A DNA stretch of 64,000 bases from NCBI GenBank assembly GCA_004356015.1, contig SMYD01000016.1, forward strand, positions 6,612 to 70,611, read 5' to 3'. Positions 23,986-55,139 of the stretch are shown here, in pieces. The translations under genes were made by a program, and so were the position numbers. Every line of letters starts with the position of its first letter. Position 1 is the stretch's first letter. Source of the DNA: Acidobacteriota bacterium (GTDB taxonomy: Bacteria; Acidobacteriota; Polarisedimenticolia; SMYD01). A model generated the notes under the pieces. It was not told the DNA's origin and searched no databases. It saw only the letters and a list, made by a program, of their open reading frames with translations.

Positions 23986-25575
23986 TCATTGGCCCGTGTT
24001 CGGCGCTATTGACCCGAAGTACGAGTTGGCCGTAAAAAAAAGTGGTTGCAGTCTCCCTCCTGACCACACGGCCACGATTTTTTGGCCCACAGGCACACCG
24101 TCTATCTGGATCCGCACCCGGCCTCCCTCATCGAACCGTAACTGTGCCACAGGTGTCTGGAGGTTCAGTTCGCCAGGTAGGGGAGTCGGGCCGATGAAGC
24201 GGCTGTAAGGTTCATGGGGAACCCGGATCCGGACCTCGGCAGACGTCTGTGTGCGATGAATCGAGCGTTCCGGGGGGCCATCCAGAACATCACTGTCCTT
24301 GGCCGGGTACGAGATGTAGCAGGCGGCCCGGACCTCCACCGGCCGTTCACCGCGCAGGAAAAGGGCGGCGCGGAAATCTCCCGCAACCGAGCCACCCCTG
24401 ATCTGAAAGGGCATATTGGCGACCACGATCTCCTCGGTTCCCGGTCTGCGGCTGAGTTCGGAGAGATCCTCGACGAGGCGATCACTCGCCTCCGCGGCTT
24501 GGTGCCAGTTGCTCCAGTGGATCTGGAGCATGAGCAGCCAGAACACGATCAACACGGTCAAGAAGATCGCTTTGAGACGACCTGGAAGGCTGCGGATCAG
24601 AGATGCCAGGATCAAGGCGGAGGCCGCGGATGGAAGCAGCAGGTAGCGCTCCTGGAGCCCCACCACGGAGGGGCCGACCAGGACCACGAAGGCGAGAGAT
24701 GCGCCAACGACGAGTGGAGAAATGCGTCTGGCGCCGAGAAAAATGAGAAGAATCATCAAGCTGACGATCGCGGTCGCCACGGTTCCCCAGAGTGCTGCCG
24801 ATGCAGTCAGGACCTCAAGGGGTGCTGGAACCAAAGCCGCCGCCGCATAGGCGAGGCCGTTCTTGGCCCAGGTCCATACCGAATCGTGAGTTAACGTCCG
24901 TCCTGCACCTCCCAACGCCCAGAAACGAAGGCAGAAGTGCAACCCGAGCTGAGTCCACAAGATGAGATAGCTGCGCATCCAGGTCCGGAGGGTGAGACCT
25001 CTTGGATATCGGAGCAGCCCCACCAGGGTCAGAAGAGCCGGCAGGGTGAGCGCGGTTTCCTTGGAGAGCAGTGCGGCCTGGAACAAGAGCATGGTGATGA
25101 TGGGCAGGCCTCGGGCTCTGGTCAGCCAACGATCATGGGCCACGGCCGCTCCCAAATAGAAGACGGCGTAAAGCGTATCGCTGCGGGCACTTATCCAGGC
25201 GGTGTTCTCCACGTGGTACGGGTGCAAGGCGTAGAGGACTCCGGCCAGCCCGGCGAGTCGTGCATCGCCCGTGTATCGCCGGACCAGGATCACGACCAGG
25301 GCCCCGGTGGCGGCGATCAGAAGGATGTTCGTCAGGTGAAACAAGAACGGCGTGAGACCGAAGAGAGTGTACTCCAGCCACAGCGTGGCCATGTAGAGCG
25401 GGCGGAAATCACCGTATGGTGTGGTATAGGCCAGGCCCGTGGCAACGGTCTCGATCTGTGCCCAGTCGTCCGATAGGAAGGGGAATCTCAGACCTGGCAG
25501 CGCCACGACCGCAGCGACCAGCGCAGCGACCAGCGGTGCGCGGCGAGGCCACCAGTGTTCGCGTGTGGTGGGCAC
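23986..25575 (-). CDS. Integral-membrane GT-C-fold glycosyltransferase (ArnT/PMT_2-like) with a C-terminal soluble domain
   Basis: 529 aa; about 11 hydrophobic segments; an early periplasmic-loop acidic motif (...RFPFLSDDWAQ...) typical of GT-C enzymes. Last gene of the minus-strand LPS operon. Confidence 0.55.
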   Translation of the reverse strand: MPTTREHWWPRRAPLVAALVAAVVALPGLRFPFLSDDWAQIETVATGLAYTTPYGDFRPLYMATLWLEYTLFGLTPFLFHLTNILLIAATGALVVILVRRYTGDARLAGLAGVLYALHPYHVENTAWISARSDTLYAVFYLGAAVAHDRWLTRARGLPIITMLLFQAALLSKETALTLPALLTLVGLLRYPRGLTLRTWMRSYLILWTQLGLHFCLRFWALGGAGRTLTHDSVWTWAKNGLAYAAAALVPAPLEVLTASAALWGTVATAIVSLMILLIFLGARRISPLVVGASLAFVVLVGPSVVGLQERYLLLPSAASALILASLIRSLPGRLKAIFLTVLIVFWLLMLQIHWSNWHQAAEASDRLVEDLSELSRRPGTEEIVVANMPFQIRGGSVAGDFRAALFLRGERPVEVRAACYISYPAKDSDVLDGPPERSIHRTQTSAEVRIRVPHEPYSRFIGPTPLPGELNLQTPVAQLRFDEGGRVRIQIDGVPVGQKIVAVWSGGRLQPLFFTANSYFGSIAPNTGQ

Positions 25576-28773: not shown

Positions 28774-29894
28774 CGGCTTGCCTGGGCAGAACGAGAACCC
28801 GGCGGGGGAGGGCCGGGGGAGGGAAGCGCCAGGATCTGCTCCACCAGGCTGTCCATCCGGTCCAAGGTCATCTCGATCTCCAGGACGGCCAGGTGGGGGT
28901 GAGGCGCGGCCGGGTCCATGCGGACGGCATCCTTGGCCGTGGTGATCACCAGACGCGCACCTGCCTGCAGGCCGGCGTCCACCAGCCCCTGAATCTCCCC
29001 GGGCCGGAACGGGTGGTGATCTGCCAGTGGCGTGAACATGACCACGCGAGCGCCGAGGCTGGTCAGTGTATCCCGCAGGGCGTCGGGCCGGGCCAGGCCG
29101 GCGAAGCCGGCCACGGGCATCCCTTTCAACTCGGCCAGAGAGGGCGGTGCGGGGCCGGGTGAAACCAGGCGCAGGCCGGTGGCCCGGTGCCGGGCCCGGT
29201 AGATGGTGACGCCGGGGGCCACGCGTTCCAGGGTCGCCGCCGCTCGCTCGTACAGAAGGTCGCCATGGGCGCGGGTGAGGATCAGGGCGTGGGCGCGGCG
29301 CAGAGCCAGGGGAGGCTCCCGCAGCAGGCCGGCCGGCAGAAAACGGCCTCCGCCCAGCGGGGCGGTTGCATCAAGGGCAACCAGGTCCAGATCCCGGTGG
29401 AGGGCGCGATGTTGAAACCCATCATCCAGAAGCACCAGGTCGGCCCCGCAGGTGGTGATGGCCTGCATGCCGCCGTGATAGCGCTGCGCGCTCACCACCA
29501 CCGGCACGTCGGCAAGGATTGTGGCCAGGAGCAGTGCTTCATCGCCGGCCTGGTCCACGTCGGCGAGAAGGTGTCCCGGTTTCCCCCTGGACACCAGAAG
29601 GGCCGGGCCTCCCGGGCGGCGCGCATTCCGGCCACCATATCCGCGCAGGACCACGGCCGGCCGCCGGCCGCGTGCTGCCAGCCTGCGAGCCAGGGCTGCC
29701 ACCAGCGGCGTCTTCCCGGTGCCGCCCACGGTCAGGTTGCCCACCGAGACCACCGGCACCGGCAAGTGCCTGATGGCGAGCAGCCCCCGGTCATAAGCGC
29801 TGTTGCGCAGGCGCACGACGCCACCGAACAGCCATCCCAGGGGTGCCAGCACGGGCTGACCCCTGAATCCAGTTGCGGCTGGTGCGGCCATCAT
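28770..29894 (-). CDS. lpxK: Tetraacyldisaccharide 4'-kinase
   Basis: 374 aa; P-loop ...VVSVGNLTVGGTGKTP... is diagnostic for LpxK; 4-nt overlaps with waaA and lpxL. Confidence 0.88.
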   Translation of the reverse strand: MMAAPAATGFRGQPVLAPLGWLFGGVVRLRNSAYDRGLLAIRHLPVPVVSVGNLTVGGTGKTPLVAALARRLAARGRRPAVVLRGYGGRNARRPGGPALLVSRGKPGHLLADVDQAGDEALLLATILADVPVVVSAQRYHGGMQAITTCGADLVLLDDGFQHRALHRDLDLVALDATAPLGGGRFLPAGLLREPPLALRRAHALILTRAHGDLLYERAAATLERVAPGVTIYRARHRATGLRLVSPGPAPPSLAELKGMPVAGFAGLARPDALRDTLTSLGARVVMFTPLADHHPFRPGEIQGLVDAGLQAGARLVITTAKDAVRMDPAAPHPHLAVLEIEMTLDRMDSLVEQILALPSPGPPPPGSRSAQASR

Positions 29895-31183
29895 CTCGGG
29901 CCAGTCGGGGGCAGAAGGGCCGTCAGGGCCTGTACCGTGCGCTCCAGGGCGCCACGCTGTTGATCCAGAAGGCGTTTCCCCGCGCGACCCCGGGCTGTCG
30001 CCTGCGCGCTGTCGCCCAGGAGTGTGGCCATCATTTGAGCTGCCTCGACGGCGTCGGCGGCGGCGAGAAGGGCTCCCTCCTTCTCCAGGCCGGCGGTGAC
30101 TTCCCGGACGTTCGCGCGCTTGGGCCCGCTGATCTGAGGCACACCGGCTGCCGCGGCTTCCAGCGGGTTGTGTCCGCCCACCGGGACCAGGGTCCCGCCC
30201 AGCAGGGCCACATGCGCAACCGCGTAGAGGCCGGCCAGCTCACCGTGGGTGTCCAGCAGCACGACCTGCATGGCACCTGCCGTGGGCGGCTTGTGGCCCA
30301 GACGGCTACGCCGGCACCAGGGAACACCCTCCTTCTCCAGAAGGCGCGCCACCTCGCCGACCCGGTCCAGATGGCGCGGCGCCAGGACCACGGTGCAGGG
30401 AGTGCCGGCGGCAGCCGCGAGGCGACCGGCTTCAAGCGCCGCGTCTTCTTCACCGGCGTGGGTTGAGCCGGCCACCAGGACGCGCCGTCCGCTCAGCCAG
30501 GGGTGCCACTCAGCGGCCACGGCCGCCGCCTGTGGCGCCGGGCAGTCCATTTTCAGATCGCCGGTGACCTGGATCCGGGCGGCGGGGACCCCCAGCTCGC
30601 CGAATCTCCTCGCGTCTTCCGGAGTGCGGGCACAGACCAGGTGGACCGCTCCGAGAGCATGTCCCATGAGACCGGGAAAACGCCGGTAGCGCCGGAGGCT
30701 GCGGTCGCTGATGCGCCCATTGACCAGGGCGATGGGAACGGTGCGGCGCCACAAACTGTGGAACAGGTTGGGCCAGATCTCGGTCTCCACGGCCACGAAC
30801 AGGGCCGGCTGCAGCCGGCGCACCACACGCGCGACCACCGGGGGGAGATCCAGGGGGAAGGTGAAGGCGGCGCCCGTGGCGGGGGGAGCCGCCAGGAGCA
30901 GGCTCCGGGCGGTTGTTGTGGTGACGGAGATACTCACGGGCGTGGCCACCTGCCCGTGGCCCTCCAGGCAGCGGGCCAGAAGGCCGGCAATCTGGAGTTC
31001 TCCGACGGATGCGGCCTGAATCCAGATGCCCCCGCGCCCTCTCTCCATGACGACCTCCGTGGGGAGGCCAAGCCGCTCGGCCACCACCCGCCAGCCCCGG
31101 GGGTGGCGCACCAAGCTCCCAGCGGCGTAGAAAGGAGTCCCCGCCAGTGCGAGCCACGTCAGGGTTTTGTAGAGGAAGTACAT
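29891..31183 (-). CDS. waaA: 3-deoxy-D-manno-octulosonic acid (Kdo) transferase
   Basis: 430 aa; N-terminal ...IWIQAASVGE... motif characteristic of KdtA/WaaA; GT-B fold. First gene of the minus-strand operon. Confidence 0.88.
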   Translation of the reverse strand: MYFLYKTLTWLALAGTPFYAAGSLVRHPRGWRVVAERLGLPTEVVMERGRGGIWIQAASVGELQIAGLLARCLEGHGQVATPVSISVTTTTARSLLLAAPPATGAAFTFPLDLPPVVARVVRRLQPALFVAVETEIWPNLFHSLWRRTVPIALVNGRISDRSLRRYRRFPGLMGHALGAVHLVCARTPEDARRFGELGVPAARIQVTGDLKMDCPAPQAAAVAAEWHPWLSGRRVLVAGSTHAGEEDAALEAGRLAAAAGTPCTVVLAPRHLDRVGEVARLLEKEGVPWCRRSRLGHKPPTAGAMQVVLLDTHGELAGLYAVAHVALLGGTLVPVGGHNPLEAAAAGVPQISGPKRANVREVTAGLEKEGALLAAADAVEAAQMMATLLGDSAQATARGRAGKRLLDQQRGALERTVQALTALLPPTGPR

Positions 31184-31242: not shown

Positions 31243-32451
31243 ATGGCGCTGGCGGGGTTTGGGGGTGGGACCTATCTTTCAGGAGGTGGCCCTGTCTCCC
31301 GGGGCCGAGATGTCATCCGGGGCGAACCCATGGCAGGACGTATCTTTGATGACCGGATTCCGCAGGATCTGCAACGGTTCATCCTGTGTGTCCACCGGGA
31401 TCGATCCATGCTGGACGACCTGCGGGTCAACCTGGAAAACATTGTTCCGCAGGAGTATCGCGTCCTGCCGGTTGATTCACCCACCCGGGGCCTGGAGGTC
31501 ATTCATGATCTGGAAGGCCAGGGAGACCAGGTGGATATCGTCATCTCGGACATGGGGACACCTGATTTCCCCGGTTATCGTTTCCTGGAGATTGTCAATC
31601 ATCGCTTTCCCCAGGTGCGCAAGGTTCTCCTGACCAGCGGCGGCGAAGACGATGCCGCCGTCTACAGTATCAACACCTCGGACCTGGACAGGTGCCTGCG
31701 GGAACCGGTGAGCCAGGAAGACTTCCGGCTCACCATTCTGTCCCTGCTTCGCCTGTGCCGCCTGCGGGCCGATAACGAAGACCTCCTGGCGGTTGTTCGC
31801 GGTCGTAACCTGCAGCTTCAGGAGATGCTCGAGTCCCTGAGTCAAGCCCATACCGAGATCGAGCAGTCCTACCTTCAGACCATACAGGCCCTGGCCCAGG
31901 CCCTGGACGCCAAGGACTCCTATACCGCCGGCCACTCGCGCCGTGTCAGCCGGTTCGCCTACCTGCTGGCCCGGCGCATGGGTCTGTCACGGGAAAAGTG
32001 CGAGGACGTTCGTGACGGCGCCCTGATGCATGATATCGGCAAGATAGGCGTCCCGGAGCAGGTCCTCCTCAAGCCCGGGCGGATGACGGAAGACGAGATC
32101 AAGCTGATGCAGATGCACCCGGTGATCGGCGCCCAGATCCTGGTTCCGGTGAAGCCCCTGCGGCGCTATATTCCGGCGGTCAAGCACCATCATGAACGCT
32201 GGGATGGGAAGGGCTATCCTGACGGCCTGAAGGCGGAAGAGATTCCGGTGGAAGCCCGCATTACTCTCATTGCCGATACCTTCGACGCCATCACCTCGGA
32301 TCGGCCGTACCGGAGCGCCAGACCGCTGGATCTGGCCGTCGAGCAGTTCACCAAGTTTTCCGGTACGCAGTTCGACCCCGAGTGTGTCCGGGTTTTCCTC
32401 GAGATCCTCACAGAAGACCCCCCCGGTCTGTCCTGTAAGGTCGAGGCCTGA
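31243..32451 (+). CDS. Response-regulator-like protein: receiver (REC) domain fused to an HD-GYP phosphodiesterase domain (RpfG-like)
   Basis: REC-like region with phospho-acceptor context ...VDIVISDMGTPDF... but a degenerate acidic pocket (CVHRD). HD-GYP domain with HDIGK...HHERWDGKGYPDGL. Start uncertain: ATG 31243 or ATG 31330. Confidence 0.8.
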   Translation: MALAGFGGGTYLSGGGPVSRGRDVIRGEPMAGRIFDDRIPQDLQRFILCVHRDRSMLDDLRVNLENIVPQEYRVLPVDSPTRGLEVIHDLEGQGDQVDIVISDMGTPDFPGYRFLEIVNHRFPQVRKVLLTSGGEDDAAVYSINTSDLDRCLREPVSQEDFRLTILSLLRLCRLRADNEDLLAVVRGRNLQLQEMLESLSQAHTEIEQSYLQTIQALAQALDAKDSYTAGHSRRVSRFAYLLARRMGLSREKCEDVRDGALMHDIGKIGVPEQVLLKPGRMTEDEIKLMQMHPVIGAQILVPVKPLRRYIPAVKHHHERWDGKGYPDGLKAEEIPVEARITLIADTFDAITSDRPYRSARPLDLAVEQFTKFSGTQFDPECVRVFLEILTEDPPGLSCKVEA

Positions 32452-33555: not shown

Positions 33556-33720
33556 GGCTCAATTTCGTGCGCGGGCAGTTTACCACCGCACCCGGCCCAG
33601 GTGGCCCCTCCAGGATGCAGATCCCTTTCACTTTCAAGGCCTTGAGGGTGATTGCCGCGCCCTGTGCCGGAACCTAGATTGAGACCAGGGGCGGCGGCGC
33701 CGTCCTCACCTGGATAATTC

Positions 33721-35643
33721 ATGTCTCAACTCCCACCACTGGAAGATCCGCGCACCTTCGACCCCGAGTTGATCGCGCCGGTCATGCCCCACAAGAGGCG
33801 GCGGCGTCGATACAAGATCGCCTGGGTCCTCACTGCGGTTCTCCTCATCGTGGGAATCCTGCCCATCTACACCGTCTCCTCGCGTCTCATTTTCATCAAC
33901 AAGGACACGCTCAAGACCCAGCAGCAGGTGAACCAGATGCAGCTGGCATCTTCCCTGGCCCATCATATCGACAGCTTCATCGAAGGCCAGCGCCGTACCC
34001 TGGCTGTCCTGGCGGAAGTGCTTTCCGGTGAGATGGCCGGACTCTCCGGCGAGAGCTTCCTGTCCAACTTGAGCCGGCGGCGCACGCTGTCGCGATTCGT
34101 TGACCGGGATGTCTTTCTCATGCGCTACACCCATCGTAACGGCACCTCGGTCACGGCCATGCAGGAGGGATTCGAGGCGGTTCCGGAACTCGAGACGATG
34201 CTGGATGACGATTTCGCGACCCATCTCAACACGGACATGGGGGCCGGAACCCGGCTGGGCGTCCCGTTCTACAGCGAGGCGGCGGGAGGCGGCGCCGTGA
34301 TCCTGTCGGCCCCGGTGACACGCAAGGGCCGTCGGGTCGGGGTGGTTTCGGCCCTGGTGGGCCTGGCGGGACTCTGGCGTGAGGCCCAGCGCTCGTCCGG
34401 CTATTCCCTGTTCGCCCTGGATGGAAAAGGCACCCTCTTCAGCGAACTGATCGACATGGAGCGTTTTACCGGTCGGCCCTACAAGGAGCTGGAACTCGTC
34501 CGTGAGTTCATTGCCGTGGGTGGCAGCCGGGTCATGCCCTACCCGGCGGTCAACGCTGCCGGTGAAGAGGTCGCTCTGGTTGGGGCCTACTACGAGACCC
34601 GCCTCGGCTGGGGCATTTTCATGCAGGCCGAAGAGAACCACGCCTACTACATGGTGGACCGCATGAAGCGGGATACCTGGTTCCATGCCGGCATGGTGGC
34701 CATCGGCGCCCTGGCCATGGGGCTGGCCTTTGCCGGCTGGATCAGCCGGCCCATTCGCCGTCTGGCCGATTCATCGGTGGCCTTCGCGGAGGGCGATTTC
34801 CATGCCCGGGTTCCCATCAACTCGGGCAACGAGATTGGCGAACTGGCCGACACCTTCAACGCCATGGCCGAGACTCTGGAACGGTATATCGCCCGGCTCA
34901 AGCGGGCTGCCCAGGAGAACAGTCAGTTGTTCCTGGGCTCCATCCGGGCCCTGACTGCGGCCATAGATGAGAAGGATTCCTACACCCGGGGCCATTCCGA
35001 GAGAGTGCGGGCTTACGCGGCGACGCTGGCCCGGGATATGGGTTTGCCGCCCGATGAGGTCTGGAGGACGGAAGTCGGGGCCCTCCTCCATGATGTGGGC
35101 AAGATCGGCATTCAGGACTGCATCCTCAACAAGCCCGGGCCGCTGACCGAGGAAGAATACGAGATCATGAAGACTCACCCGGTGCGCGGGGCCAATATCA
35201 TGGCACCCATCGAGCAACTCAGTGATGTCATCCCGATCATGAAACATCATCATGAGCGCTGGGACGGGCGCGGGTATCCCGATGGCCTGAAGGCCCTGGA
35301 CATCCCCCTGTCGGCCCGCCTGGTGACCATCGTCGACTGCTGGGACGCCATGACCACCAACCGGCCCTATCAGAAGGCCATGGGCATGGAAGCGGGTATC
35401 ACACGGCTCGAGGTGCTGGTGGGGAAGATGTTCGACCCCGATGCCGTGAAGGTGTTCATTGCGGGCATGCGGGATGGGCATTACAGTGCGGTGTACGACG
35501 AGGCGAAGCAGCAGGTGGCCGACACCACGGAGAACCTCAGCCGCATCGAGCAGGATCCCCGGGCCGTTGTTTCCGCCCGCCGCAATCTCGACCCGGACTG
35601 CCTGACCCCCGAGCCGGACGAACCGCCGGTCACCCAGGCCTGA
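33721..35643 (+). CDS. Membrane sensor protein: N-terminal TM, periplasmic sensing region, second TM, HAMP domain and HD-GYP c-di-GMP phosphodiesterase domain
   Basis: 640 aa; TM helices around residues 30-50 and 300-320; HAMP (...PIRRLADSSVAFAEGDFHARV...); HD-GYP (HDVGKIG...HHERWDGRGYPDGL). Confidence 0.85.
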   Translation: MSQLPPLEDPRTFDPELIAPVMPHKRRRRRYKIAWVLTAVLLIVGILPIYTVSSRLIFINKDTLKTQQQVNQMQLASSLAHHIDSFIEGQRRTLAVLAEVLSGEMAGLSGESFLSNLSRRRTLSRFVDRDVFLMRYTHRNGTSVTAMQEGFEAVPELETMLDDDFATHLNTDMGAGTRLGVPFYSEAAGGGAVILSAPVTRKGRRVGVVSALVGLAGLWREAQRSSGYSLFALDGKGTLFSELIDMERFTGRPYKELELVREFIAVGGSRVMPYPAVNAAGEEVALVGAYYETRLGWGIFMQAEENHAYYMVDRMKRDTWFHAGMVAIGALAMGLAFAGWISRPIRRLADSSVAFAEGDFHARVPINSGNEIGELADTFNAMAETLERYIARLKRAAQENSQLFLGSIRALTAAIDEKDSYTRGHSERVRAYAATLARDMGLPPDEVWRTEVGALLHDVGKIGIQDCILNKPGPLTEEEYEIMKTHPVRGANIMAPIEQLSDVIPIMKHHHERWDGRGYPDGLKALDIPLSARLVTIVDCWDAMTTNRPYQKAMGMEAGITRLEVLVGKMFDPDAVKVFIAGMRDGHYSAVYDEAKQQVADTTENLSRIEQDPRAVVSARRNLDPDCLTPEPDEPPVTQA

Positions 35644-35818
35644 TTGGTCCCCCATCCGGGGAGATCGCGCCGGATGGGGCGGGCGGCGATTGCTCCGACA
35701 GGGGTTCCCTCCGGCCCCATTCTCCTATATCCTTGCCGCCGTTCCCGCGAGAAGATCGTCAGGAGGGCTGGAAGCAGCCATCTGCTCAGATCCTGCGGGA
35801 CTTCCGAGAAGGAGGTTC

Positions 35819-36703
35819 ATGAAGTTTTCCCAGCAATCAGAATCCCTGCGAGAGGCCTTGCAGCCGTATCCGCGCTGGCGCCTCTTCGGGGAAGGGACGG
35901 CTACAGCGACGTTCGAGTTCGCCGAGCCGGAGTATGCGGCCGGTTTTGTGACCCGGGCCATCGAGCAGGCCAGGGCGTACCAGCGCATTCCTCACCTGTC
36001 TCTGGCGGGCGTGACTGTGAAGCTGACCCTGGCAGTGGCTCTGGGCCGGGAAGGGCTGGCCGAGAGTGATCGGAGCCTTCTGGGTGCCCTGGAGCGTGCC
36101 GCCGATCATCCGGGCCGGCCGGCTCCCACCGAAGAGCCCATTCTCTCGCTCATTGCCGATCGCTGGTCTCCCCGCGCTTTCAGCGAGGAGGCGGTGCCCG
36201 AGCCGATCCTTCGGCGCCTGTTCGAGGCAGCCCGCTGGGCGCCTTCGTCCTTCAATGAGCAGCCATGGAGGTTCGTGGTGGTGACCGACCCGGAACGCCG
36301 TGACGTGGTGGCCGAGGCGCTGGTGGCGGCCAACAGCTGGGCCCGCCGTGCACCGGTCCTGGTCGTGGTGTCGGTCGCACGGAAATTTGCCAAGAACCGG
36401 CGTATCAACCGGCAGGCCCCTTACGATACGGGTGGTGCGACCGCTCAACTGGTCATGCAGGCAACGGCCCTGGGGCTGGTGGCCCATCAGATGGCCGGCT
36501 TCGACCCGGCGGTGGTGCATGAGAAGGTCCATATCCCCGATGCGTTCGAACCCATTTCCCTGGTGGCCCTGGGGTACTGGGGTGAAGGCGCCGGCCTGGA
36601 CGAGGACCTGCTGGCGCGGGAGGATGCCGAGCGCGAACGGCGACCTCTCTCCGAGGTGCTGTTCTGGCAGGATTGGGGAGGCGAGGAGAAAGCCTCTTCC
36701 TGA
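35819..36703 (+). CDS. Fusion protein: pterin-4a-carbinolamine dehydratase (PCD/DCoH)-like N-terminal domain plus C-terminal nitroreductase-family domain
   Basis: ATG 35819 with GAAGGAGG RBS. N-terminal ...WRLFGEGTATATFEFAEPEYAAGFVTRAIEQA...IPHLSLAGVTVKLTL...GL.E.D..L aligns to the PCD fold pattern. C-terminal ...RWSPRAFSEEAVPEPILRRLFEAARWAPSSFNEQPWRFVVV... is nitroreductase-like. The upstream in-frame extension (35690) lacks an RBS. Confidence 0.6.
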   Translation: MKFSQQSESLREALQPYPRWRLFGEGTATATFEFAEPEYAAGFVTRAIEQARAYQRIPHLSLAGVTVKLTLAVALGREGLAESDRSLLGALERAADHPGRPAPTEEPILSLIADRWSPRAFSEEAVPEPILRRLFEAARWAPSSFNEQPWRFVVVTDPERRDVVAEALVAANSWARRAPVLVVVSVARKFAKNRRINRQAPYDTGGATAQLVMQATALGLVAHQMAGFDPAVVHEKVHIPDAFEPISLVALGYWGEGAGLDEDLLAREDAERERRPLSEVLFWQDWGGEEKASS

Positions 36704-36733
36704 AACGCCCGGCCGTTCAGCCGGCCCGCTGCA

Positions 36734-38146
36734 TCAGACGAAGACCCACCAGGTCAGCAGTGCGAAGATGGGGAACAGGATCGCCGCCGCCATGCCGAAA
36801 TAGGCGAAAAACGAAGGCATCTTCACCCCGCGATGCTCGGCGATGGACTTCACCATGAAGTTGGGTGCGTTGCCTATGTAGGTGACGGCGCCGAAGAAGA
36901 CGGCGCCCAGGCTGATGGCCTTGAGGACCGCATCGGCCATCCCGACCCCCAGTGTGCCTGTCTGGCCCAGCGCCTGGGCAAGGGAAAAGAACGTCAGGTA
37001 GGTGGGCGTATTATCCAGGAAGGCCGAGAGCAGGCCCGTCGCCCAGAAGAACTGCCATGGCTGGACGATCCCCAGGCCGGCACCCTGTGCCCGCAGCAGA
37101 TCCAGGGCGGGGATCATGGTCAGGAAGATGCCGAAGAAGAGGACACCTACCTCGATGATGGGATGCCAGGTGTAGTGGTTGCCACGGCGTACGGCCTGCG
37201 GCGTCAGCCACAGGGAGATGGCGGCCAGGATGAGCAGCACAACCTCCCGATCATGGAAGGGCCAGGCCGCCGGCACCAGGTAGGGCCTGGTGATGAACGC
37301 CACGGACAGGATGACGCCGACGATGAGGGGCCAGTTCAGGTTGCCGAGAATGCGCAGTGGTTCCACCAGCAGGCGGTCTCGGTGCAGGGCCGCCTCGGGC
37401 TCCCGGCTCAGGGCGTAGTTGTCCCAGACGAAGTAGATCAGCAGCACCATGCCGTTGACCGCGAGCCACTCGGGGAGGAGGGTCAGGGTCCAGGTGAAGG
37501 GCACTCCCCGCAGGTATCCCATGAAGAGGGGAGGGTCACCCAGCGGCGTCAGGAGGCCGCCGATATTGGAGACGCAGAAGATGAAAAAGAGAATGGTGTG
37601 GACCGTATGGGTCCTTTCCGAGTTGGTCTTGAGGAGTGGCCGGATCAGGAGCATGGAAGCGCCCGTGGTTCCCATGATGGAAGCCAGAACGGTTCCCAGG
37701 GCCAGAAAACCCACGTTGGTCAGGGGAGTGGCACGAAGGTCGCCCCGCAGGAGAATCCCGCCGGAAATCACAAACAACGCCAGGAGCAACAACATGAATG
37801 CGATGTACTCCTCCAGCGTGTGCATGAGGGAACCCGGACTCTTCAACAGATAGAGGACCAGGACAGGCACGCCCAGAGCCGCGGCAATCCAGAATTTATT
37901 CAGGTTGCTGTGCCACCACTTCTCCGCCCTGATGGGGAGGATGGCGATGGACAGCAGCATCAGGATGAAGAATGAGAGCCATGCCGGATTAAGGCTCTCG
38001 CCCAGGCCGCTATGGGAACCCTCTCCCGCACCTCCGGCCAGGCTGGCGGCGGGAAGCAGGAGCGCGATGATCAAGAACAGCGCGAGGGCAACGGTACGTC
38101 CCGCGAACCTGCCGACGTGGGCGCCATGCAGCATGATGGCGGGCAT
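36734..38146 (-). CDS. Ion-transporter-superfamily membrane protein (NhaD/ArsB/CitMHS-like Na+/H+ antiporter type)
   Basis: 470 aa; N-terminal signal/TM, about 11-13 TM helices; re-entrant-loop-like ...LLTPLGDPPLFMGY... and ...LSAFLDNTPTYLTF... motifs. Confidence 0.55.
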   Translation of the reverse strand: MPAIMLHGAHVGRFAGRTVALALFLIIALLLPAASLAGGAGEGSHSGLGESLNPAWLSFFILMLLSIAILPIRAEKWWHSNLNKFWIAAALGVPVLVLYLLKSPGSLMHTLEEYIAFMLLLLALFVISGGILLRGDLRATPLTNVGFLALGTVLASIMGTTGASMLLIRPLLKTNSERTHTVHTILFFIFCVSNIGGLLTPLGDPPLFMGYLRGVPFTWTLTLLPEWLAVNGMVLLIYFVWDNYALSREPEAALHRDRLLVEPLRILGNLNWPLIVGVILSVAFITRPYLVPAAWPFHDREVVLLILAAISLWLTPQAVRRGNHYTWHPIIEVGVLFFGIFLTMIPALDLLRAQGAGLGIVQPWQFFWATGLLSAFLDNTPTYLTFFSLAQALGQTGTLGVGMADAVLKAISLGAVFFGAVTYIGNAPNFMVKSIAEHRGVKMPSFFAYFGMAAAILFPIFALLTWWVFV

Positions 38147-38191: not shown

Positions 38192-38974
38192 CTAGAACAC
38201 CGGATCGCCCGGCAGCCGCACCATGGCCCGCATCCCCACGAAGGTCATGGGGTAGATCGCTCGGGCCTGTTCTTCGCTCATGGTCAGATGAATCCACGTG
38301 TGGACCGGTTCCATCTCGTCGGCGGCAGGCAGGTCGGGAGGAATGAGGAGGTTGGCCAGACGTTCAAGTTTCTCCTGAACCCAGCCGCCCTCTTTCAGAG
38401 CGGTCTGGTCGCCCACGATATGGACCGCGACGCCCTGGCGGTAGAGGAGCGTGTAGCGGGATGGGTAGGTCGTCTCCTTCAGGCCGGCGATCTCGGCGGT
38501 GACGGAACGGGGATTGATCTCGTCCATGGCGGCGGCCCCTTCAGGCCGGGGCTGGATGATCTCAGCCGCTTCCTGGTCGCCTGATTTGGCCACCAGGTCA
38601 AGCGCCCGGTCCATCCATGCCCGCTGGGGTGAAATGGCGTCTTCCGCTTCGGTCAGGACCTCCATTTCGGCGCCGGTCAGCGGGAGGGCCTGCACGGCGG
38701 TCACCCGCACGTAGACACGGATTTCCTTCTCCTCCAGGTCGAAGACCAGATACGGAGAATCTTGCTCGGCGAGATGGATCTGCAGTTCCTTGAGCTGGGC
38801 TTCCCGCTCCAGGAGGAATTTACGTTGCAGGAGCCTGGCGTACCGGGATCGCCGGTCCTGCTCATCCTCGGCATCTGTCTGACCTCGAGGCGCCACGGTC
38901 GCCAGGGTGGAGAGCAGCAGAAAGACACTCAGGCCGGTCAGCACCTGTCTTCGCCGTGAAGGAATGGCCCGCAT
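38192..38974 (-). CDS. Secreted hypothetical protein (signal peptide, no recognisable domain)
   Basis: 260 aa; N-terminal MRAIPSRRRQVLTGLSVFLLLSTLATVAP signal sequence. Overlaps the upstream L,D-transpeptidase stop by 1 nt, so it is co-operonic. Confidence 0.5.
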   Translation of the reverse strand: MRAIPSRRRQVLTGLSVFLLLSTLATVAPRGQTDAEDEQDRRSRYARLLQRKFLLEREAQLKELQIHLAEQDSPYLVFDLEEKEIRVYVRVTAVQALPLTGAEMEVLTEAEDAISPQRAWMDRALDLVAKSGDQEAAEIIQPRPEGAAAMDEINPRSVTAEIAGLKETTYPSRYTLLYRQGVAVHIVGDQTALKEGGWVQEKLERLANLLIPPDLPAADEMEPVHTWIHLTMSEEQARAIYPMTFVGMRAMVRLPGDPVF

Positions 38975-44685: not shown

Positions 44686-45936
44686 ATGATGACCCTGTCC
44701 GTGCCCCTCATCAATCTGGGCCTGGGGCGTTCCGCCAACCCCACCCTGGCCCTGGCCGCCTATGCCGTGGGGTTCTCCATCTCCGTGGTGTTCAACGCAC
44801 CGGTCCTCTCGGCCCGGGTCGTGACGGCAGGTCTGGCCCGCTCCCCGGCGGCCTACCGAACCGTGGCCCGGGTCATGCGCCTCCTGGGTCTGGTTCTGTC
44901 GGGGAGTGCCGTGACCCTGTCCCTGCTGCCGGCGGGCAAATGGCTGTTCACGGATCTTCTGGGAGCACCGCCCGAACTGGTCGGCCCGGCTCGTCTGGTC
45001 CTGCTGCTGCAGGCGCCCATCCCCATGCTGGTGGCCGAACGGGGACTCGCTCAGGGGATGATTCTTCTCTACCGGCAAACGGTCCTGATCACCCTGGCCA
45101 CCCTGGCGCGGCTGGCGGCGGTGACGGCCATGGTCCTGCTTCTGGCGGTGGTTTTTCGTCTGCCCGGCGCCGCGGCCGGAGCGCTCTCCCTGACCTCGGG
45201 GATCGCCATGGAAGCTCTCTGGATTCGTGTTTCCGTTCGCCGCCGGTTCGGGCCGTTTCGCCGGCCGCTGCCTGCCGGCACGCCGGTGCCGGGCACCGAG
45301 TTGACGTCACGCCGGGTCCTGGGATTTGCCCTTCCCCTGGCCCTGAATCACACAGTCTGGTCCATGCAGCGCGCCCTGATCAACTCCTTCATCGCCCGCC
45401 TGGCCGATCCTGTGACGGCCCTGGCGGCGTTCGGGGTCGTGACCCCTCTCTTCCTGTTTTTTTCGTCCCCTCTGTTTGGCATGCAGGCTACCGTTCAGGT
45501 TCTGCCGCGCAACCGCAGAGATCTCCGCCAGCTGGCACGGTTCACTCTGGCAGTGGCAATCGGCCTCTCCTTGAGTTCGGGCATCGTGGTCTGGGGGGCT
45601 GCGCGCTGGATCCTGGAGGCGGGATATGGCCTGGCCGGGCGGCCTCTGGCCGCGGCGCTGCCGGCTCTGGCGTGGATCTGGATTCATCCCCTGCTCATGG
45701 GGTTTCGGGCGTTCGGCCAGGGGATGCTGCTGCGCACGGGAAGAACGGGACCCATCGCCCTTTCCGCCGCCTCGAGGGTGGTGCTGGTGAGCTCGCTGGG
45801 TTTTGGCCTCGTCGCCGGCTTTCCCGAAGGCAACGGTGCCATGATCGGTATCAGTATGCAGATGGCAGGAGATGCCTGGGATATGGTCCTGGCCTGCCTG
45901 TGGGGCGCTCGTGCTGTGCGCCGCAGCCTGCGTTAA
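44686..45936 (+). CDS. MOP-superfamily (Wzx/MurJ/PST-like) polysaccharide or lipid-linked oligosaccharide flippase candidate
   Basis: 416 aa; about 12 TM helices, Arg-rich short loops; no other start in frame upstream. Confidence 0.45.
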   Translation: MMTLSVPLINLGLGRSANPTLALAAYAVGFSISVVFNAPVLSARVVTAGLARSPAAYRTVARVMRLLGLVLSGSAVTLSLLPAGKWLFTDLLGAPPELVGPARLVLLLQAPIPMLVAERGLAQGMILLYRQTVLITLATLARLAAVTAMVLLLAVVFRLPGAAAGALSLTSGIAMEALWIRVSVRRRFGPFRRPLPAGTPVPGTELTSRRVLGFALPLALNHTVWSMQRALINSFIARLADPVTALAAFGVVTPLFLFFSSPLFGMQATVQVLPRNRRDLRQLARFTLAVAIGLSLSSGIVVWGAARWILEAGYGLAGRPLAAALPALAWIWIHPLLMGFRAFGQGMLLRTGRTGPIALSAASRVVLVSSLGFGLVAGFPEGNGAMIGISMQMAGDAWDMVLACLWGARAVRRSLR

Positions 45937-49242: not shown

Positions 49243-50007
49243 GTGCGCTGCAGCCCTGTGGTAGCATGCACTTTTCTCAACCCGCCATGCTGTGCGCCCG
49301 AAGGAGACAAGTTGAGCCGCGTCGATACGGGGCTGTTGCTGTTTGTTGAAGATCCGGCGCGCACGGTCTCCCGCTGGTCACAGGAAGAGCCGAGTGGAGA
49401 CACGGCGGTGGAAATGCTCGCCGCAGTGCATGGCGACCTGGTGGCCGTTCTCATGGGGGCGCCGGGGACCGCTCTCTACCTGGCACCGGCCGTTGCGGCC
49501 GACGAAGGCTATGTGAAGCAACTGGCCGGTACCTCCGGGGTGGCCATCCTGCAGGTGCCCATGGCTCCGCCACTGGAGCGCTGGGATGCGGGATTATCGA
49601 TCCTGTTCAACCGCTGCACGCATCGCAAGGTTCTCTGCGTCGACGGCGGCGTGCCCGATGTGGCGGTCGAGGATCTCAGCCGGGCCCGGCGCAAACTCGA
49701 TCTCTATGACATGGTTCTGGGAAGAGAAGGGGAGGATCGCTGCTGGCTGGTCGGCTTCAACGGCTACCAGGAAATCCTGGGACCGGCCAATGCCGGTCCT
49801 GACGACACCCTGCATCCTTTGCTCCAGGCCGCCGGTCGCGCCGGCCTGGATGTCTCCCTGCTGGATACCAAGCGAACCCTGGCCACCGGGCCGGACATGG
49901 ATCTGCTGCGGGGCCTGGCCCGGCGGGCGGATTATTCCCGCCTGCGCGCCGTTCTTGAACGGCACCACCCGGCCCGAAAGAGCCGCGAGGAGGCCGGCGC
50001 GAACTGA
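49243..50007 (+). CDS. Hypothetical protein, possibly DUF2064/MobA-CofC-like nucleotidyltransferase-fold
   Basis: 254 aa; GTG start; ...VLCVDGGVPDV...DLYDMVLGREGEDRCWLVGFNG... resembles GT-A-like nucleotidyltransferase folds. Weak assignment. Confidence 0.35.
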   Translation: MRCSPVVACTFLNPPCCAPEGDKLSRVDTGLLLFVEDPARTVSRWSQEEPSGDTAVEMLAAVHGDLVAVLMGAPGTALYLAPAVAADEGYVKQLAGTSGVAILQVPMAPPLERWDAGLSILFNRCTHRKVLCVDGGVPDVAVEDLSRARRKLDLYDMVLGREGEDRCWLVGFNGYQEILGPANAGPDDTLHPLLQAAGRAGLDVSLLDTKRTLATGPDMDLLRGLARRADYSRLRAVLERHHPARKSREEAGAN

Positions 50008-50200: not shown

Positions 50201-51046
50201 GTGAGATCAATCCGCTCAATCAGTGCTCCAGTCCTGGCCCTGGCCACCGCCCTCATGCTGCCTGTGGTCACGCCGGCCCAGTCGCAGTCAGCGGGAGCCA
50301 CAACCGCGTCTCCGGATGATCGGCGCTTCATCCAGATCTTCGTCCAGGATGCCGCCATCGTCGAGAATCTCTGGATCGAGGGGCAGATGCGCATTCAGTC
50401 CCTCAGCAATGGCGATGATGTTTTTCGCATCGGGCCGGTCTTCGCATTCAGCCCGCTGGACAGGCTGGAGATCGGCGGCCGCATTGATTACATCGATCGG
50501 GCTGTTCGCTTCGATGGCAGCGAATCGGGCCTGGGCGACACCACCGCCTGGGCCAAGTGGCAGTTCTTCCACAATCCGGTGCAGTTCACCGTGGGTGTGG
50601 AGTTGTACCTGCCCACCGGCGATGAAGATCAATTGCTGGGCACCGGGGAGTTCGATATCGGCGTATTCGGCGCGGTGCGCAAGAATCTGGATGAGGCGTA
50701 CATCACCGGCTATTTCGGCTTCCGGAACAACGGCGATGCCACGTTGGGGGCTGATGTCTTCAACAATGACGTCCGACTGGAAGGTGACACCAGCATCTTC
50801 CTGGGTGGCGGCGTCATGCTCCCGATCAACGATCGGTTCGCCCTCTCCGGGGAACTGAGAGTGGAGACCGAGCGTTACGAGCAATCGGTCGAGTTCATCG
50901 AAGGTGCCGAATCGCTCATCGATCTCACCGCCGGGGGCTACTGGTATCTCTCCAGGAAGGCGACCGTGCGTGCCGCCATCGCCATCGGGCTGGACGATGG
51001 CGCGCCGGACTGGCAGCTCATCGGCGGATTTGCCTGGCATTACTGA
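50201..51046 (+). CDS. Putative outer-membrane beta-barrel protein (signal peptide; alternating amphipathic strands; C-terminal aromatic residue)
   Basis: 281 aa; N-terminal MRSIRSISAPVLALATALMLPVVTPAQS signal; Gly/Asp-rich turns alternating with hydrophobic strands; ends ...GGFAWHY. Confidence 0.45.
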   Translation: MRSIRSISAPVLALATALMLPVVTPAQSQSAGATTASPDDRRFIQIFVQDAAIVENLWIEGQMRIQSLSNGDDVFRIGPVFAFSPLDRLEIGGRIDYIDRAVRFDGSESGLGDTTAWAKWQFFHNPVQFTVGVELYLPTGDEDQLLGTGEFDIGVFGAVRKNLDEAYITGYFGFRNNGDATLGADVFNNDVRLEGDTSIFLGGGVMLPINDRFALSGELRVETERYEQSVEFIEGAESLIDLTAGGYWYLSRKATVRAAIAIGLDDGAPDWQLIGGFAWHY

Positions 51047-53870: not shown

Positions 53871-55139
53871 TCAGCGTCCGTTGGCACCGCGGCGTAATTC
53901 TGTGATGTCGACTTCAACGGGATCGGTGTAAGTGCGGCTACCGTCCAGCGCCGTGACTTCCAGGCGGTAGAAGAGCGAGTTGCTGGCGCGCTCAGGCATC
54001 CGGCGCGACAGGATGTCCACCGCGACGAAATTGCCCTGCATGCCACTGACCTGGATGTTCTGCCGGGTGATGGGGTGGTATGGCCCCTCGCTCTGGCTGG
54101 CTCGCAGAAGGCTGAACGAACCCACACCGGCAAGGCTGTCGGCCTGCCAGTCCAGGACGATCCGGTGGCGTTCCAGGCGTCCCCGCAGGCCGCTGACCTG
54201 GCTGGCCTGGGACTGGAAGGTGACTGGATAGGAGTTGGCGGAAAAGAAGGTCGAGGCCACGTCCTGGGCGTAGACCAGCCTGATGGCGGCCACCAGGCGC
54301 TGTCCCGCAGGGTCGAATCCTGCCAGCACGGGATCCCCGGCGGCCAGGGTAAAGCTGGTGGTGCTCAGCGGCAGGAACATGCCTGGCGTTGCCTCGATGA
54401 GATTGCCGAGTGCCTCGGCGCTTCTCAGTTCACTCTCGCTGGGGCCCAGCCGGCGGCTTCGATCCTGGGCCATGAAGTACAGCTTGTACCCCTTGACCGG
54501 GTTGGGAGCGCCGTCATTGATGCTGAGAGCGGCGGCCTCTTCCCAGATGAAGTCGATATTCCCGCTGTCACTGAACCAAACAGTAGGCCGCGGGATGGGC
54601 GACAGGCCTCCAAGGCGGGAGATGGCGCCGGCCGGGCCGAAGCCATCCAGATCGTTGCCCGACTCGTAGGCCAGAGCGAGAAAGCAAGCCGTCGATGAGA
54701 CCACGGGCAGGCAGGTGGAGGATGTGGAGTTGCCCAGCTCACCGAAGCTGACGACCTGCGACTGGGCGCCGAAATACCCCACATGGTCAAATCTGTCCTG
54801 GTTTGTGACGCCATCCCACACCGCGAACCAGTTCAAGTCGGTCAGGCCGAGGCTGGACGGGTAATTTCCGGTGAGCTGCGAATCCGCCTGATAGAATTTC
54901 CTCTTGCGGTAAGCGGGGAAGCCATCAACCGGGTTGGCGGCACCAAGAAAATCGGTAGGATCGACTTCGTTGTAGATCCGCACATGGAGATTGCATGGGT
55001 CAAGACCCCGGCCGCACTGGAAGATGTCTCCCTCTTGTCCGAGAACCGTAGACCCGACGATCTCGCCCGACGTCTGTGCGAAGCCGGCCGCCGGCACGAG
55101 AAGAGCGGCGGCGGCAAACAGCATCAGGAACTTCTTCAT
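53871..55139 (-). CDS. Secreted hypothetical protein (422 aa) with signal peptide and beta-rich C-terminal domain
   Basis: N-terminal MKKFLMLFAAAALLVPAAGFAQ signal peptide; no recognisable catalytic motif; several Cys. Confidence 0.5.
   Translation of the reverse strand: MKKFLMLFAAAALLVPAAGFAQTSGEIVGSTVLGQEGDIFQCGRGLDPCNLHVRIYNEVDPTDFLGAANPVDGFPAYRKRKFYQADSQLTGNYPSSLGLTDLNWFAVWDGVTNQDRFDHVGYFGAQSQVVSFGELGNSTSSTCLPVVSSTACFLALAYESGNDLDGFGPAGAISRLGGLSPIPRPTVWFSDSGNIDFIWEEAAALSINDGAPNPVKGYKLYFMAQDRSRRLGPSESELRSAEALGNLIEATPGMFLPLSTTSFTLAAGDPVLAGFDPAGQRLVAAIRLVYAQDVASTFFSANSYPVTFQSQASQVSGLRGRLERHRIVLDWQADSLAGVGSFSLLRASQSEGPYHPITRQNIQVSGMQGNFVAVDILSRRMPERASNSLFYRLEVTALDGSRTYTDPVEVDITELRRGANGR

Follow-up and report, generated by a model that had tools for sequence, protein, structure and literature searches.

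A pterin-4a-carbinolamine dehydratase-like domain without its catalytic residues is joined to a nitroreductase-superfamily protein in a small Acidobacteriota clade

The stretch of DNA analyzed here, called the window below, comprises 64,000 nucleotides of the Acidobacteriota contig SMYD01000016.1. An intact open reading frame (ORF) is present at positions 35819-36703 of its top strand, with an ATG at 35819 and a stop codon at 36701-36703. The 294-residue product is an exact match of GenBank TDI35227.1, recorded as 'MAG: hypothetical protein E2P03_01540 [Acidobacteria bacterium]', where MAG stands for metagenome-assembled genome; that record is encoded by an 88.8-kb contig. It consists of a domain related to pterin-4a-carbinolamine dehydratase (PCD, also denoted PCD/DCoH) followed directly by a domain of the nitroreductase superfamily, for which binding of flavin mononucleotide (FMN) is predicted. 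The features of the gene and its leader are as follows:

35819-36703, top strand: complete coding sequence, 294 residues and a stop codon, supported by translation, identity with TDI35227.1 and 15 full-length homolog clusters of 61-99% identity
35819-36109, top strand: residues 1-97, PCD/DCoH-fold domain, with R52, R56, I57, G64 and A74 at the catalytic positions
36107-36127, top strand: residues 97-103 (HPGRPAP), flush junction of the domains, placed by alignment with stand-alone relatives, five of seven residues being invariant
36110-36700, top strand: residues 98-294, predicted FMN domain of the nitroreductase superfamily, supported by Pfam, PDB, Foldseek and shared invariant columns
35809-35815, top strand: Shine-Dalgarno sequence AAGGAGG, read directly from the sequence
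35650-35679, top strand: perfect 10-bp GC-rich hairpin, CCCCATCCGG / CCGGATGGGG, with no T tract, read directly from the sequence

The Shine-Dalgarno sequence ends 3 nt 5′ of the ATG. It is kept in the closest relative (L009) and occurs in a weaker form in other relatives, and the same methionine start is found in all 15 homolog clusters. A longer, TTG-initiated ORF of 337 codons from position 35690 was rejected because both of these observations favour the ATG at 35819. The hairpin at 35650-35679 begins 7 nt past the stop codon of the upstream HAMP-HD-GYP gene and may form a transcript boundary behind it; a scan for consensus terminators did not call it. The position of this hairpin behind the upstream gene suggests a separate transcript for the fusion gene. 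Scanning of 35500-36900 revealed no consensus promoter or terminator. The 175-nt leader gave no riboswitch match in Rfam at E ≤ 1 and shows little conservation past the closest relative. One block, TC(C/T)T(A/G)TATCCT at about 35699-35711 of the window, is kept in L009, L001 and L006 amid divergent intergenic DNA, and may represent a promoter element.

The initial annotation of this ORF, made from the sequence alone, had described a PCD/DCoH-like domain fused to a nitroreductase-family domain, and both assignments were borne out. The match of the query alone to PF01329 (Pterin_4a) is marginal, at 23.5 bits for the full-length protein and 26.1-26.2 bits for the isolated domain against a cut-off of 26. 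However, when non-redundant N-termini of the family were analyzed, 13 out of 13 matched PF01329 and no other family, with a best E value of 1.6e-8. A search of the PDB with a profile of the domain returned PCD/DCoH proteins as its top six matches, all in register over residues 8-95, and hhalign comparison with a canonical bacterial PCD gave a probability of 95.6%. Identity to PCD/DCoH proteins is 24-37% over the full domain. An exhaustive HMMER profile search of 1.84 billion representative proteins produced seven matches at E ≤ 1e-3; three of these belong to the fusion family (one full-length, two truncated) and four are PCDs or PCD-like proteins. No N-domain variant of this kind was found outside the fusion in that set, nor anything closer to it than ordinary PCDs, so that within the representatives searched it is always tied to a nitroreductase.

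The AlphaFold2 model of residues 1-105 (pLDDT 87, pTM 0.76) consists of an N-terminal helix followed by ββαββα, with elements at residues 5-13 (N-terminal helix), 20-22 and 27-33 (β), 37-53 (α1), 59-63 and 66-72 (β) and 82-96 (α2). The fold of about 100 residues with ββαββα topology, used as the test of family membership, is thus present in the N-domain. Since the Pfam matches of the family, the PDB search, hhalign, HMMER and the structural model all agree, the N-domain is a true, highly divergent member of the PCD/DCoH fold.

Two truncated or frameshifted fusions, P0121 (119 residues) and P0122 (134 residues), were recovered in the same searches. P0122 matches P0012 exactly as far as about residue 94 and differs from it thereafter; both entries are probably assembly or sequencing frameshifts, not stand-alone N-domains. 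Another protein, P0123 (554 residues, encoded outside the window), carries four PCD domains in tandem between a signal-peptide-like N-terminus and a hydrophobic segment at the C-terminus. Its PCD domains keep the HHP motif and have Asp at the position of His79; this multi-PCD architecture is unusual.

The C-terminal half matches PF00881 (Nitroreductase) at residues 112-253 over profile positions 1-167 of 167, with E = 8.7e-25 and 88.3 bits at a cut-off of 23.5. In total, 87 nitroreductase chains of the PDB were matched. The best match, at E = 3.8e-32, is to residues 151-321 of 4eo3, the nitroreductase domain of the peroxiredoxin-nitroreductase (Prx-NR) of Thermotoga maritima, and covers residues 115-284 of the fusion; the second, at E = 1.6e-27, is to the Agrobacterium FMN oxidoreductase 2fre and stops only a few residues short of the C-terminus. 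The same two structures, in the same order, were the top hits of Foldseek with the full-length model. All named NCBIfam subfamilies that were compared scored under their cut-offs: RutE 71.4 bits against 152, BluB 54.8 against 150, NfsA 20.3 against 223 and the NfsB equivalog model NF008275 38.3 against 227, so the domain is not of the NfsB type.

Stand-alone nitroreductases of about 200 residues and about 50% identity exist in thousands, many of them from Acidobacteriota MAGs, and their Met1 aligns with residue ~98 of the fusion. Because the stand-alone relatives begin at this point, the domains were delimited as residues 1-97 and 98-294, without a linker; this corrects the boundaries of 1-90 and about 130-294 proposed initially. 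Within the junction, HPGR is invariant and occurs only in the fusion, and PAP corresponds to the kept N-terminus of the stand-alone nitroreductases. Residues R115, S117, N146-E-Q-P-W150, H223, R272 and R274 are invariant in fusions and stand-alone relatives alike. R119 is nearly invariant in the combined alignment, but five of the 16 fusion sequences have L, V or H there. The motif R115-x-S117-x-R119 aligns with RWSPRAF of 2fre; R-x-S-x-R and the C-terminal basic residues are the positions to which FMN binding is assigned in this superfamily.

The N-domain was mapped position by position onto human PCBD1 and the canonical PCDs found in the searches, with PCD positions numbered as in PCBD1. In all 16 sequences of the family E57 of the PCDs is replaced by R52, H61 by R56, H62 by I57 and Y69 by G64. 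The position of H79 is occupied by A74 (S or G in four members), and His is absent from it in 16 out of 16. Only P63 (P58 in the fusion) and D88 (D84), which belong to the fold core, are kept. Thus every member has other residues at five of the seven catalytic-motif positions, those of the three catalytic histidines among them. Other features of PCDs do persist: the G-F-[VM]-T-R helix, Q50, P58, G79 and D84. The replaced residues line the pterin pocket in the complex of DCoH with dihydrobiopterin. The motifs quoted in the initial annotation are all present (RIPHL at 56-60, RWSPRAF at 115-121, EQPWRFVVV at 147-155), its replacement of HHP by R-I-P is correct, and the loss goes beyond HHP.

The COG2154 motif reportedly given by Naponelli et al. 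in 2008, [EDKH]-x3-H-[HN]-[PCS]-x5,6-[YWF]-x9-[HW]-x8,15-D, was found in none of the 16 members. As a regular expression it likewise failed to match two of the four control PCDs that do bear the histidines, and for this reason the mapping of individual positions was relied upon. A search of the available literature for mutagenesis of His61, His62 and His79 returned nothing. There is a precedent for inactive domains of this fold in the plant type-2 PCD/RAF2 proteins, which show no PCD activity and function in the biogenesis of Rubisco (PMC5972614; PMC5859369). Given this precedent and the replaced motif positions, catalysis by the N-domain through the classical dehydratase mechanism appears very unlikely.

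Loss of the catalytic residues has not been accompanied by relaxed selection. Ratios of nonsynonymous to synonymous substitution (dN/dS) were calculated by the Nei-Gojobori method for six orthologous coding sequences; with synonymous divergence near saturation in distant pairs the values are approximate, and are given here by segment:

PCD-like domain: 0.03-0.27
nitroreductase domain: 0.14-0.32
last nine residues (C-terminal tail): about 0.4-2

The N-domain is therefore under purifying selection at least as strong as that on the enzyme half. Across the entire protein, conservation peaks in strand β1 (RWRLF, four of five residues invariant), helix α1 (residues 37-53, 11 of 17) and the HPGRPAP junction (five of seven). 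Mean frequency of the major residue is 0.94-0.97 in these three segments (0.96 in the junction) versus 0.79 in the nitroreductase domain. The residues now present at the former active site are themselves fixed, with R52, R56, I57 and G64 found in 16 out of 16 sequences, and loop 54-58, which together with α1 frames the pocket, is highly conserved. Helix α1 is the element which we take to be equivalent to the long DCoH helix that forms the tetramer and HNF1-binding interface; two of the PDB matches, 3hxa and 4wil, are Thr51/Ser51 interface mutants of that same helix. Judged by this pattern of conservation, the N-domain is functional in spite of the catalytic loss.

The fusion itself is real but rare. 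Among 5.8 billion clusters, 15 full-length ones with the N-terminal extension were found at 90% identity, and these are 61-99% identical to the query. Only three out of 185,579 GTDB species representatives encode it, all of them Acidobacteriota MAGs, one named Candidatus Polarisedimenticolia. Besides the contig of TDI35227.1, the gene is carried by GCA_041577995.1, GCA_041580435.1, JAPUKF01 and JBHHZI01. On every contig long enough to be judged the gene occupies the same place in a syntenic block spanning ±8 kb, and within the sequence sets searched the fusion is confined to this one Acidobacteriota clade.

These data are best explained, with moderate confidence, if the protein is a minimal-type FMN-dependent NAD(P)H oxidoreductase that carries a non-catalytic, DCoH-like interface module at its N-terminus. 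The nitroreductase half is of the minimal 2FRE / T. maritima Prx-NR type. By analogy with the characterized Prx-NR, it would most likely oxidize NAD(P)H and transfer two electrons to quinone-like or nitroaromatic acceptors, acting as an obligate homodimer that holds FMN where its subunits meet. The nitroreductase domain of 4eo3 is a characterized FMN enzyme with E°′ of about -185 mV, passing electrons from NADH to quinones or nitroaromatics (PMC8395237). The N-domain would be a descendant of a pterin-4a-carbinolamine dehydratase, now a pseudo-enzyme maintained by strong purifying selection. Most likely it serves as a DCoH-like protein-protein interface: it would determine the quaternary structure, recruit a partner, or lie against the nitroreductase dimer and help to shape the way into the active site. 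Roles of this kind are played by the same fold in DCoH (binding of HNF1) and in acRAF/RAF2 (assembly of Rubisco). In nitroreductase dimers the N-terminal segment packs on the partner subunit (PMC6017928), and it is to this segment that the PCD-derived domain is joined flush. In the AlphaFold2 model of the full-length monomer residues 99-118 have pLDDT < 50, as expected if the N-terminal helix of the enzyme packs on a partner subunit.

Several points weigh against this interpretation. The full-length model (pTM 0.51) leaves the inter-domain arrangement undefined. Conservation was measured within a narrow clade (61-99% identity) and has limited resolving power. The syntenic block is vertically inherited, and gene context provides no functional clue. 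The invariant R52 and R56 at the former pterin pocket could equally fit a repurposed small-molecule site. Finally, PCD and nitroreductase form a real pterin-recycling pair, so their pairing here may not be a coincidence.

Among the alternatives, the one that survives best is that the N-domain was repurposed for sensing a ligand or capturing a substrate: the pocket lined by R52 and R56 would bind a small anion, for example a metabolite bearing phosphate or carboxylate groups, a cofactor or the substrate, and would regulate or feed the nitroreductase site. The active-site positions did not drift but became fixed as four invariant replacements, the loop and helix framing the pocket are highly conserved, and the domain as a whole is under strong purifying selection, all of which this proposal accommodates. 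We nevertheless regard it as unlikely. Conservation across the whole of α1, β1 and the junction exceeds what a small pocket needs, no ligand can be inferred from the context (no operon partner, no riboswitch), and no precedent was found for allosteric domains of the PCD fold.

A second alternative, quite unlikely in our judgment, is a single-chain pterin-recycling module, in line with the pterin/flavin redox module suggested in the initial annotation. Here the N-domain would bind pterin 4a-carbinolamine or quinonoid dihydropterin and catalyze, or simply tolerate, its dehydration, which can proceed spontaneously as well. The nitroreductase would act as an FMN-dependent dihydropteridine reductase and regenerate tetrahydropterin for a hydroxylase encoded elsewhere. 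The idea is not baseless. PCD and dihydropteridine reductase carry out consecutive steps, a fusion of two enzymes from a single pathway fits the classic Rosetta-stone pattern, and tetrahydrobiopterin (BH4) has been regenerated with the documented pairs CvPCD-EcNfsB and CvPCD-CvDPR, in which an NfsB-type nitroreductase served as the reductase (PMC11885754). NfsB-type PDB entries named 'Dihydropteridine reductase' (7uwt, 8v5b, 7xww) match the query weakly, and an entry in the reference list of PMC6017928 cites NprA of R. capsulatus as a nitroreductase that is a dihydropteridine reductase.

Such a module is unsupported, however. No member retains any of the three catalytic histidines, E57 or Y69. 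The nitroreductase half does not resemble NfsB (38 bits versus 227), and its matches to the 'dihydropteridine reductase' chains span only residues ~108-176. No pterin, aromatic-hydroxylase, molybdenum cofactor (Moco) or Rubisco genes were detected within about ±15 kb by a Pfam scan that included 20 further genes of the window, and no pterin-biosynthesis, aromatic-amino-acid hydroxylase or Moco genes were detected in the syntenic loci of relatives. The leader gave no riboswitch in Rfam. In a Rosetta-stone check the nearest stand-alone PCD-like gene, P0124, was found beside a Mur-ligase gene and not a nitroreductase.

A bolder form of the same idea, in which the arginine-lined PCD-derived pocket would capture 4a-carbinolamine or quinonoid dihydropterin and hand it over to a minimal, hub-type nitroreductase acting as FMN-dependent dihydropteridine reductase, is in our view a long shot. 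If true, it would be the first natural single-chain pterin-recycling module and would be evidence for non-NfsB nitroreductases as physiological dihydropteridine reductases in bacteria. The fusion does join two families that together regenerate tetrahydropterins, and if this link is functional, not coincidental, it would point to a physiological substrate class for the poorly understood minimal nitroreductases.

The remaining explanation, an artefact of chimeric assembly, of a gene-joining frameshift or of a wrong start codon, can draw on P0121 and P0122, which show that such errors occur in these metagenomes, and on the longer TTG-initiated ORF, but is effectively refuted by one continuous frame of 292-304 residues that recurs in assemblies of JGI, ENA, NCBI and Logan (15 independent clusters), by the constant syntenic position, by purifying selection on both halves and by the Shine-Dalgarno sequence before an ATG that homologs share.

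Both folds are familiar; precedents are Prx-NR for a nitroreductase with a small added domain and acRAF/RAF2 for an inactive PCD fold. The T. maritima Prx-NR likewise has a small, independently folding N-terminal domain on a nitroreductase of the minimal type. Its partner, however, is an active peroxiredoxin, whereas that of the fusion is a PCD fold without catalytic residues, and the organisms and gene contexts are unrelated. In Prx-NR the fused peroxiredoxin domain is independent of the nitroreductase and does not exchange redox equivalents with it (PMC8395237).

Stand-alone nitroreductases of the 2FRE type (2fre of A. tumefaciens and proteins of Acidobacteriota MAGs such as P0031 and P0094) share with the fusion about 50% identity across the C-terminal domain, together with RWSPRAF, NEQPW, HQMAGFD and the C-terminal R-x-R, but are without the N-terminal 97 residues. 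The fusion clade differs from them further in having GYWGEG for GYPGD, R151 for A and two short deletions.

PCD/DCoH proteins (PCBD1/2 and bacterial PhhB; PF01329, COG2154) have the fold of the N-domain and detectable homology over its full length; unlike them, all fusion members have His61, His62, His79, Glu57 and Tyr69 replaced. The α-carboxysomal acRAF (4low) and RAF2, the plant type-2 PCD, are also PCD folds without the catalytic residues. They differ in being stand-alone and linked to Rubisco or carboxysome genes, none of which were found in the ~35 kb annotated window or in the syntenic loci, and acRAF has only ~18-19% sequence similarity to the N-domain. The BH4-regenerating pair (C. 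violaceum PCD with DPR or E. coli NfsB) brings the same two superfamilies together (PMC11885754), but as separate, intact proteins and with a reductase of the NfsB subgroup; the fusion is without the catalytic PCD residues and fails the NfsB model.

A literature search found no paper describing a fusion of PCD-like and nitroreductase domains. The family bears automatic annotations only: NCBI lists its members as 'hypothetical protein' or 'nitroreductase family protein', and IMG calls some of them 'nitroreductase/pterin-4a-carbinolamine dehydratase'. In the initial annotation the architecture had not been recognized as a described one; the combination does appear in the IMG names. The two findings that the initial annotation had named as telling against it, the lack of any significant match to Pterin_4a and an architecture that is common and annotated, were not encountered.

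Only a minority of nitroreductase-superfamily proteins have a known physiological role, and a conserved domain fused to one of them is among the few hints that sequence can give of a partner or substrate. To DCoH-HNF1 and acRAF/RAF2-Rubisco the fusion adds a third setting in which the PCD/DCoH fold persists as a probable pseudo-enzyme, and the first in which it is covalently tied to a flavoenzyme. Practical impact is limited, as the clade of uncultured Acidobacteriota is small and the gene context names no pathway.

The conserved gene order around the fusion is: lipid A acyltransferase, LpxK, KdtA, HD-GYP, a MetX-like hydrolase on the opposite strand, IscU (in distant relatives only), the dCache/HAMP-HD-GYP sensor, the fusion, a convergent CitMHS_2 transporter, a hypothetical gene and two YkuD L,D-transpeptidases. 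Since the whole block is syntenic in all relatives, adjacency reflects vertical descent and no functional coupling can be inferred from it. A tblastn match of a canonical PCD at 30089-30265 of the top strand (E = 0.048) lies antisense within KdtA (29891-31183, bottom strand) and was dismissed as chance.

Six ORFs with high G+C at third codon positions, encoding 254-529 residues, have no Pfam match at E ≤ 1e-5:

23986-25575, bottom strand: ORF without Pfam match
38192-38974, bottom strand: ORF without Pfam match
44686-45936, top strand: ORF without Pfam match
49243-50007, top strand: ORF without Pfam match
50201-51046, top strand: ORF without Pfam match
53871-55139, bottom strand: ORF without Pfam match

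The ORF of 260 residues beside CitMHS_2 is kept in the syntenic loci, there too without a Pfam match.

The IscU/NifU_N gene lies between the MetX-like and HAMP-HD-GYP genes in three relatives (L001:5532-5933, L004:4803-5204 and L006:5489-5890). A tblastn search detected it neither in the window nor in L009, the closest relative, and the corresponding site in the window is a 165-bp gap at 33556-33720. Proteins of the HD-GYP type (HD_5/HD) are encoded on either side of the MetX-like gene (31243-32451 and 33721-35643 of the window, both on the top strand); one is response-regulator-like and the other has HAMP (with dCache in relatives), and the pair is kept just upstream of the fusion in all relatives. 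One sub-lineage has an additional Sdh_cyt gene (PF01127, succinate dehydrogenase cytochrome b-like; L004:7300-7959 and L005:2-136) between the genes of the HD-GYP sensor and the fusion, immediately ahead of the latter.

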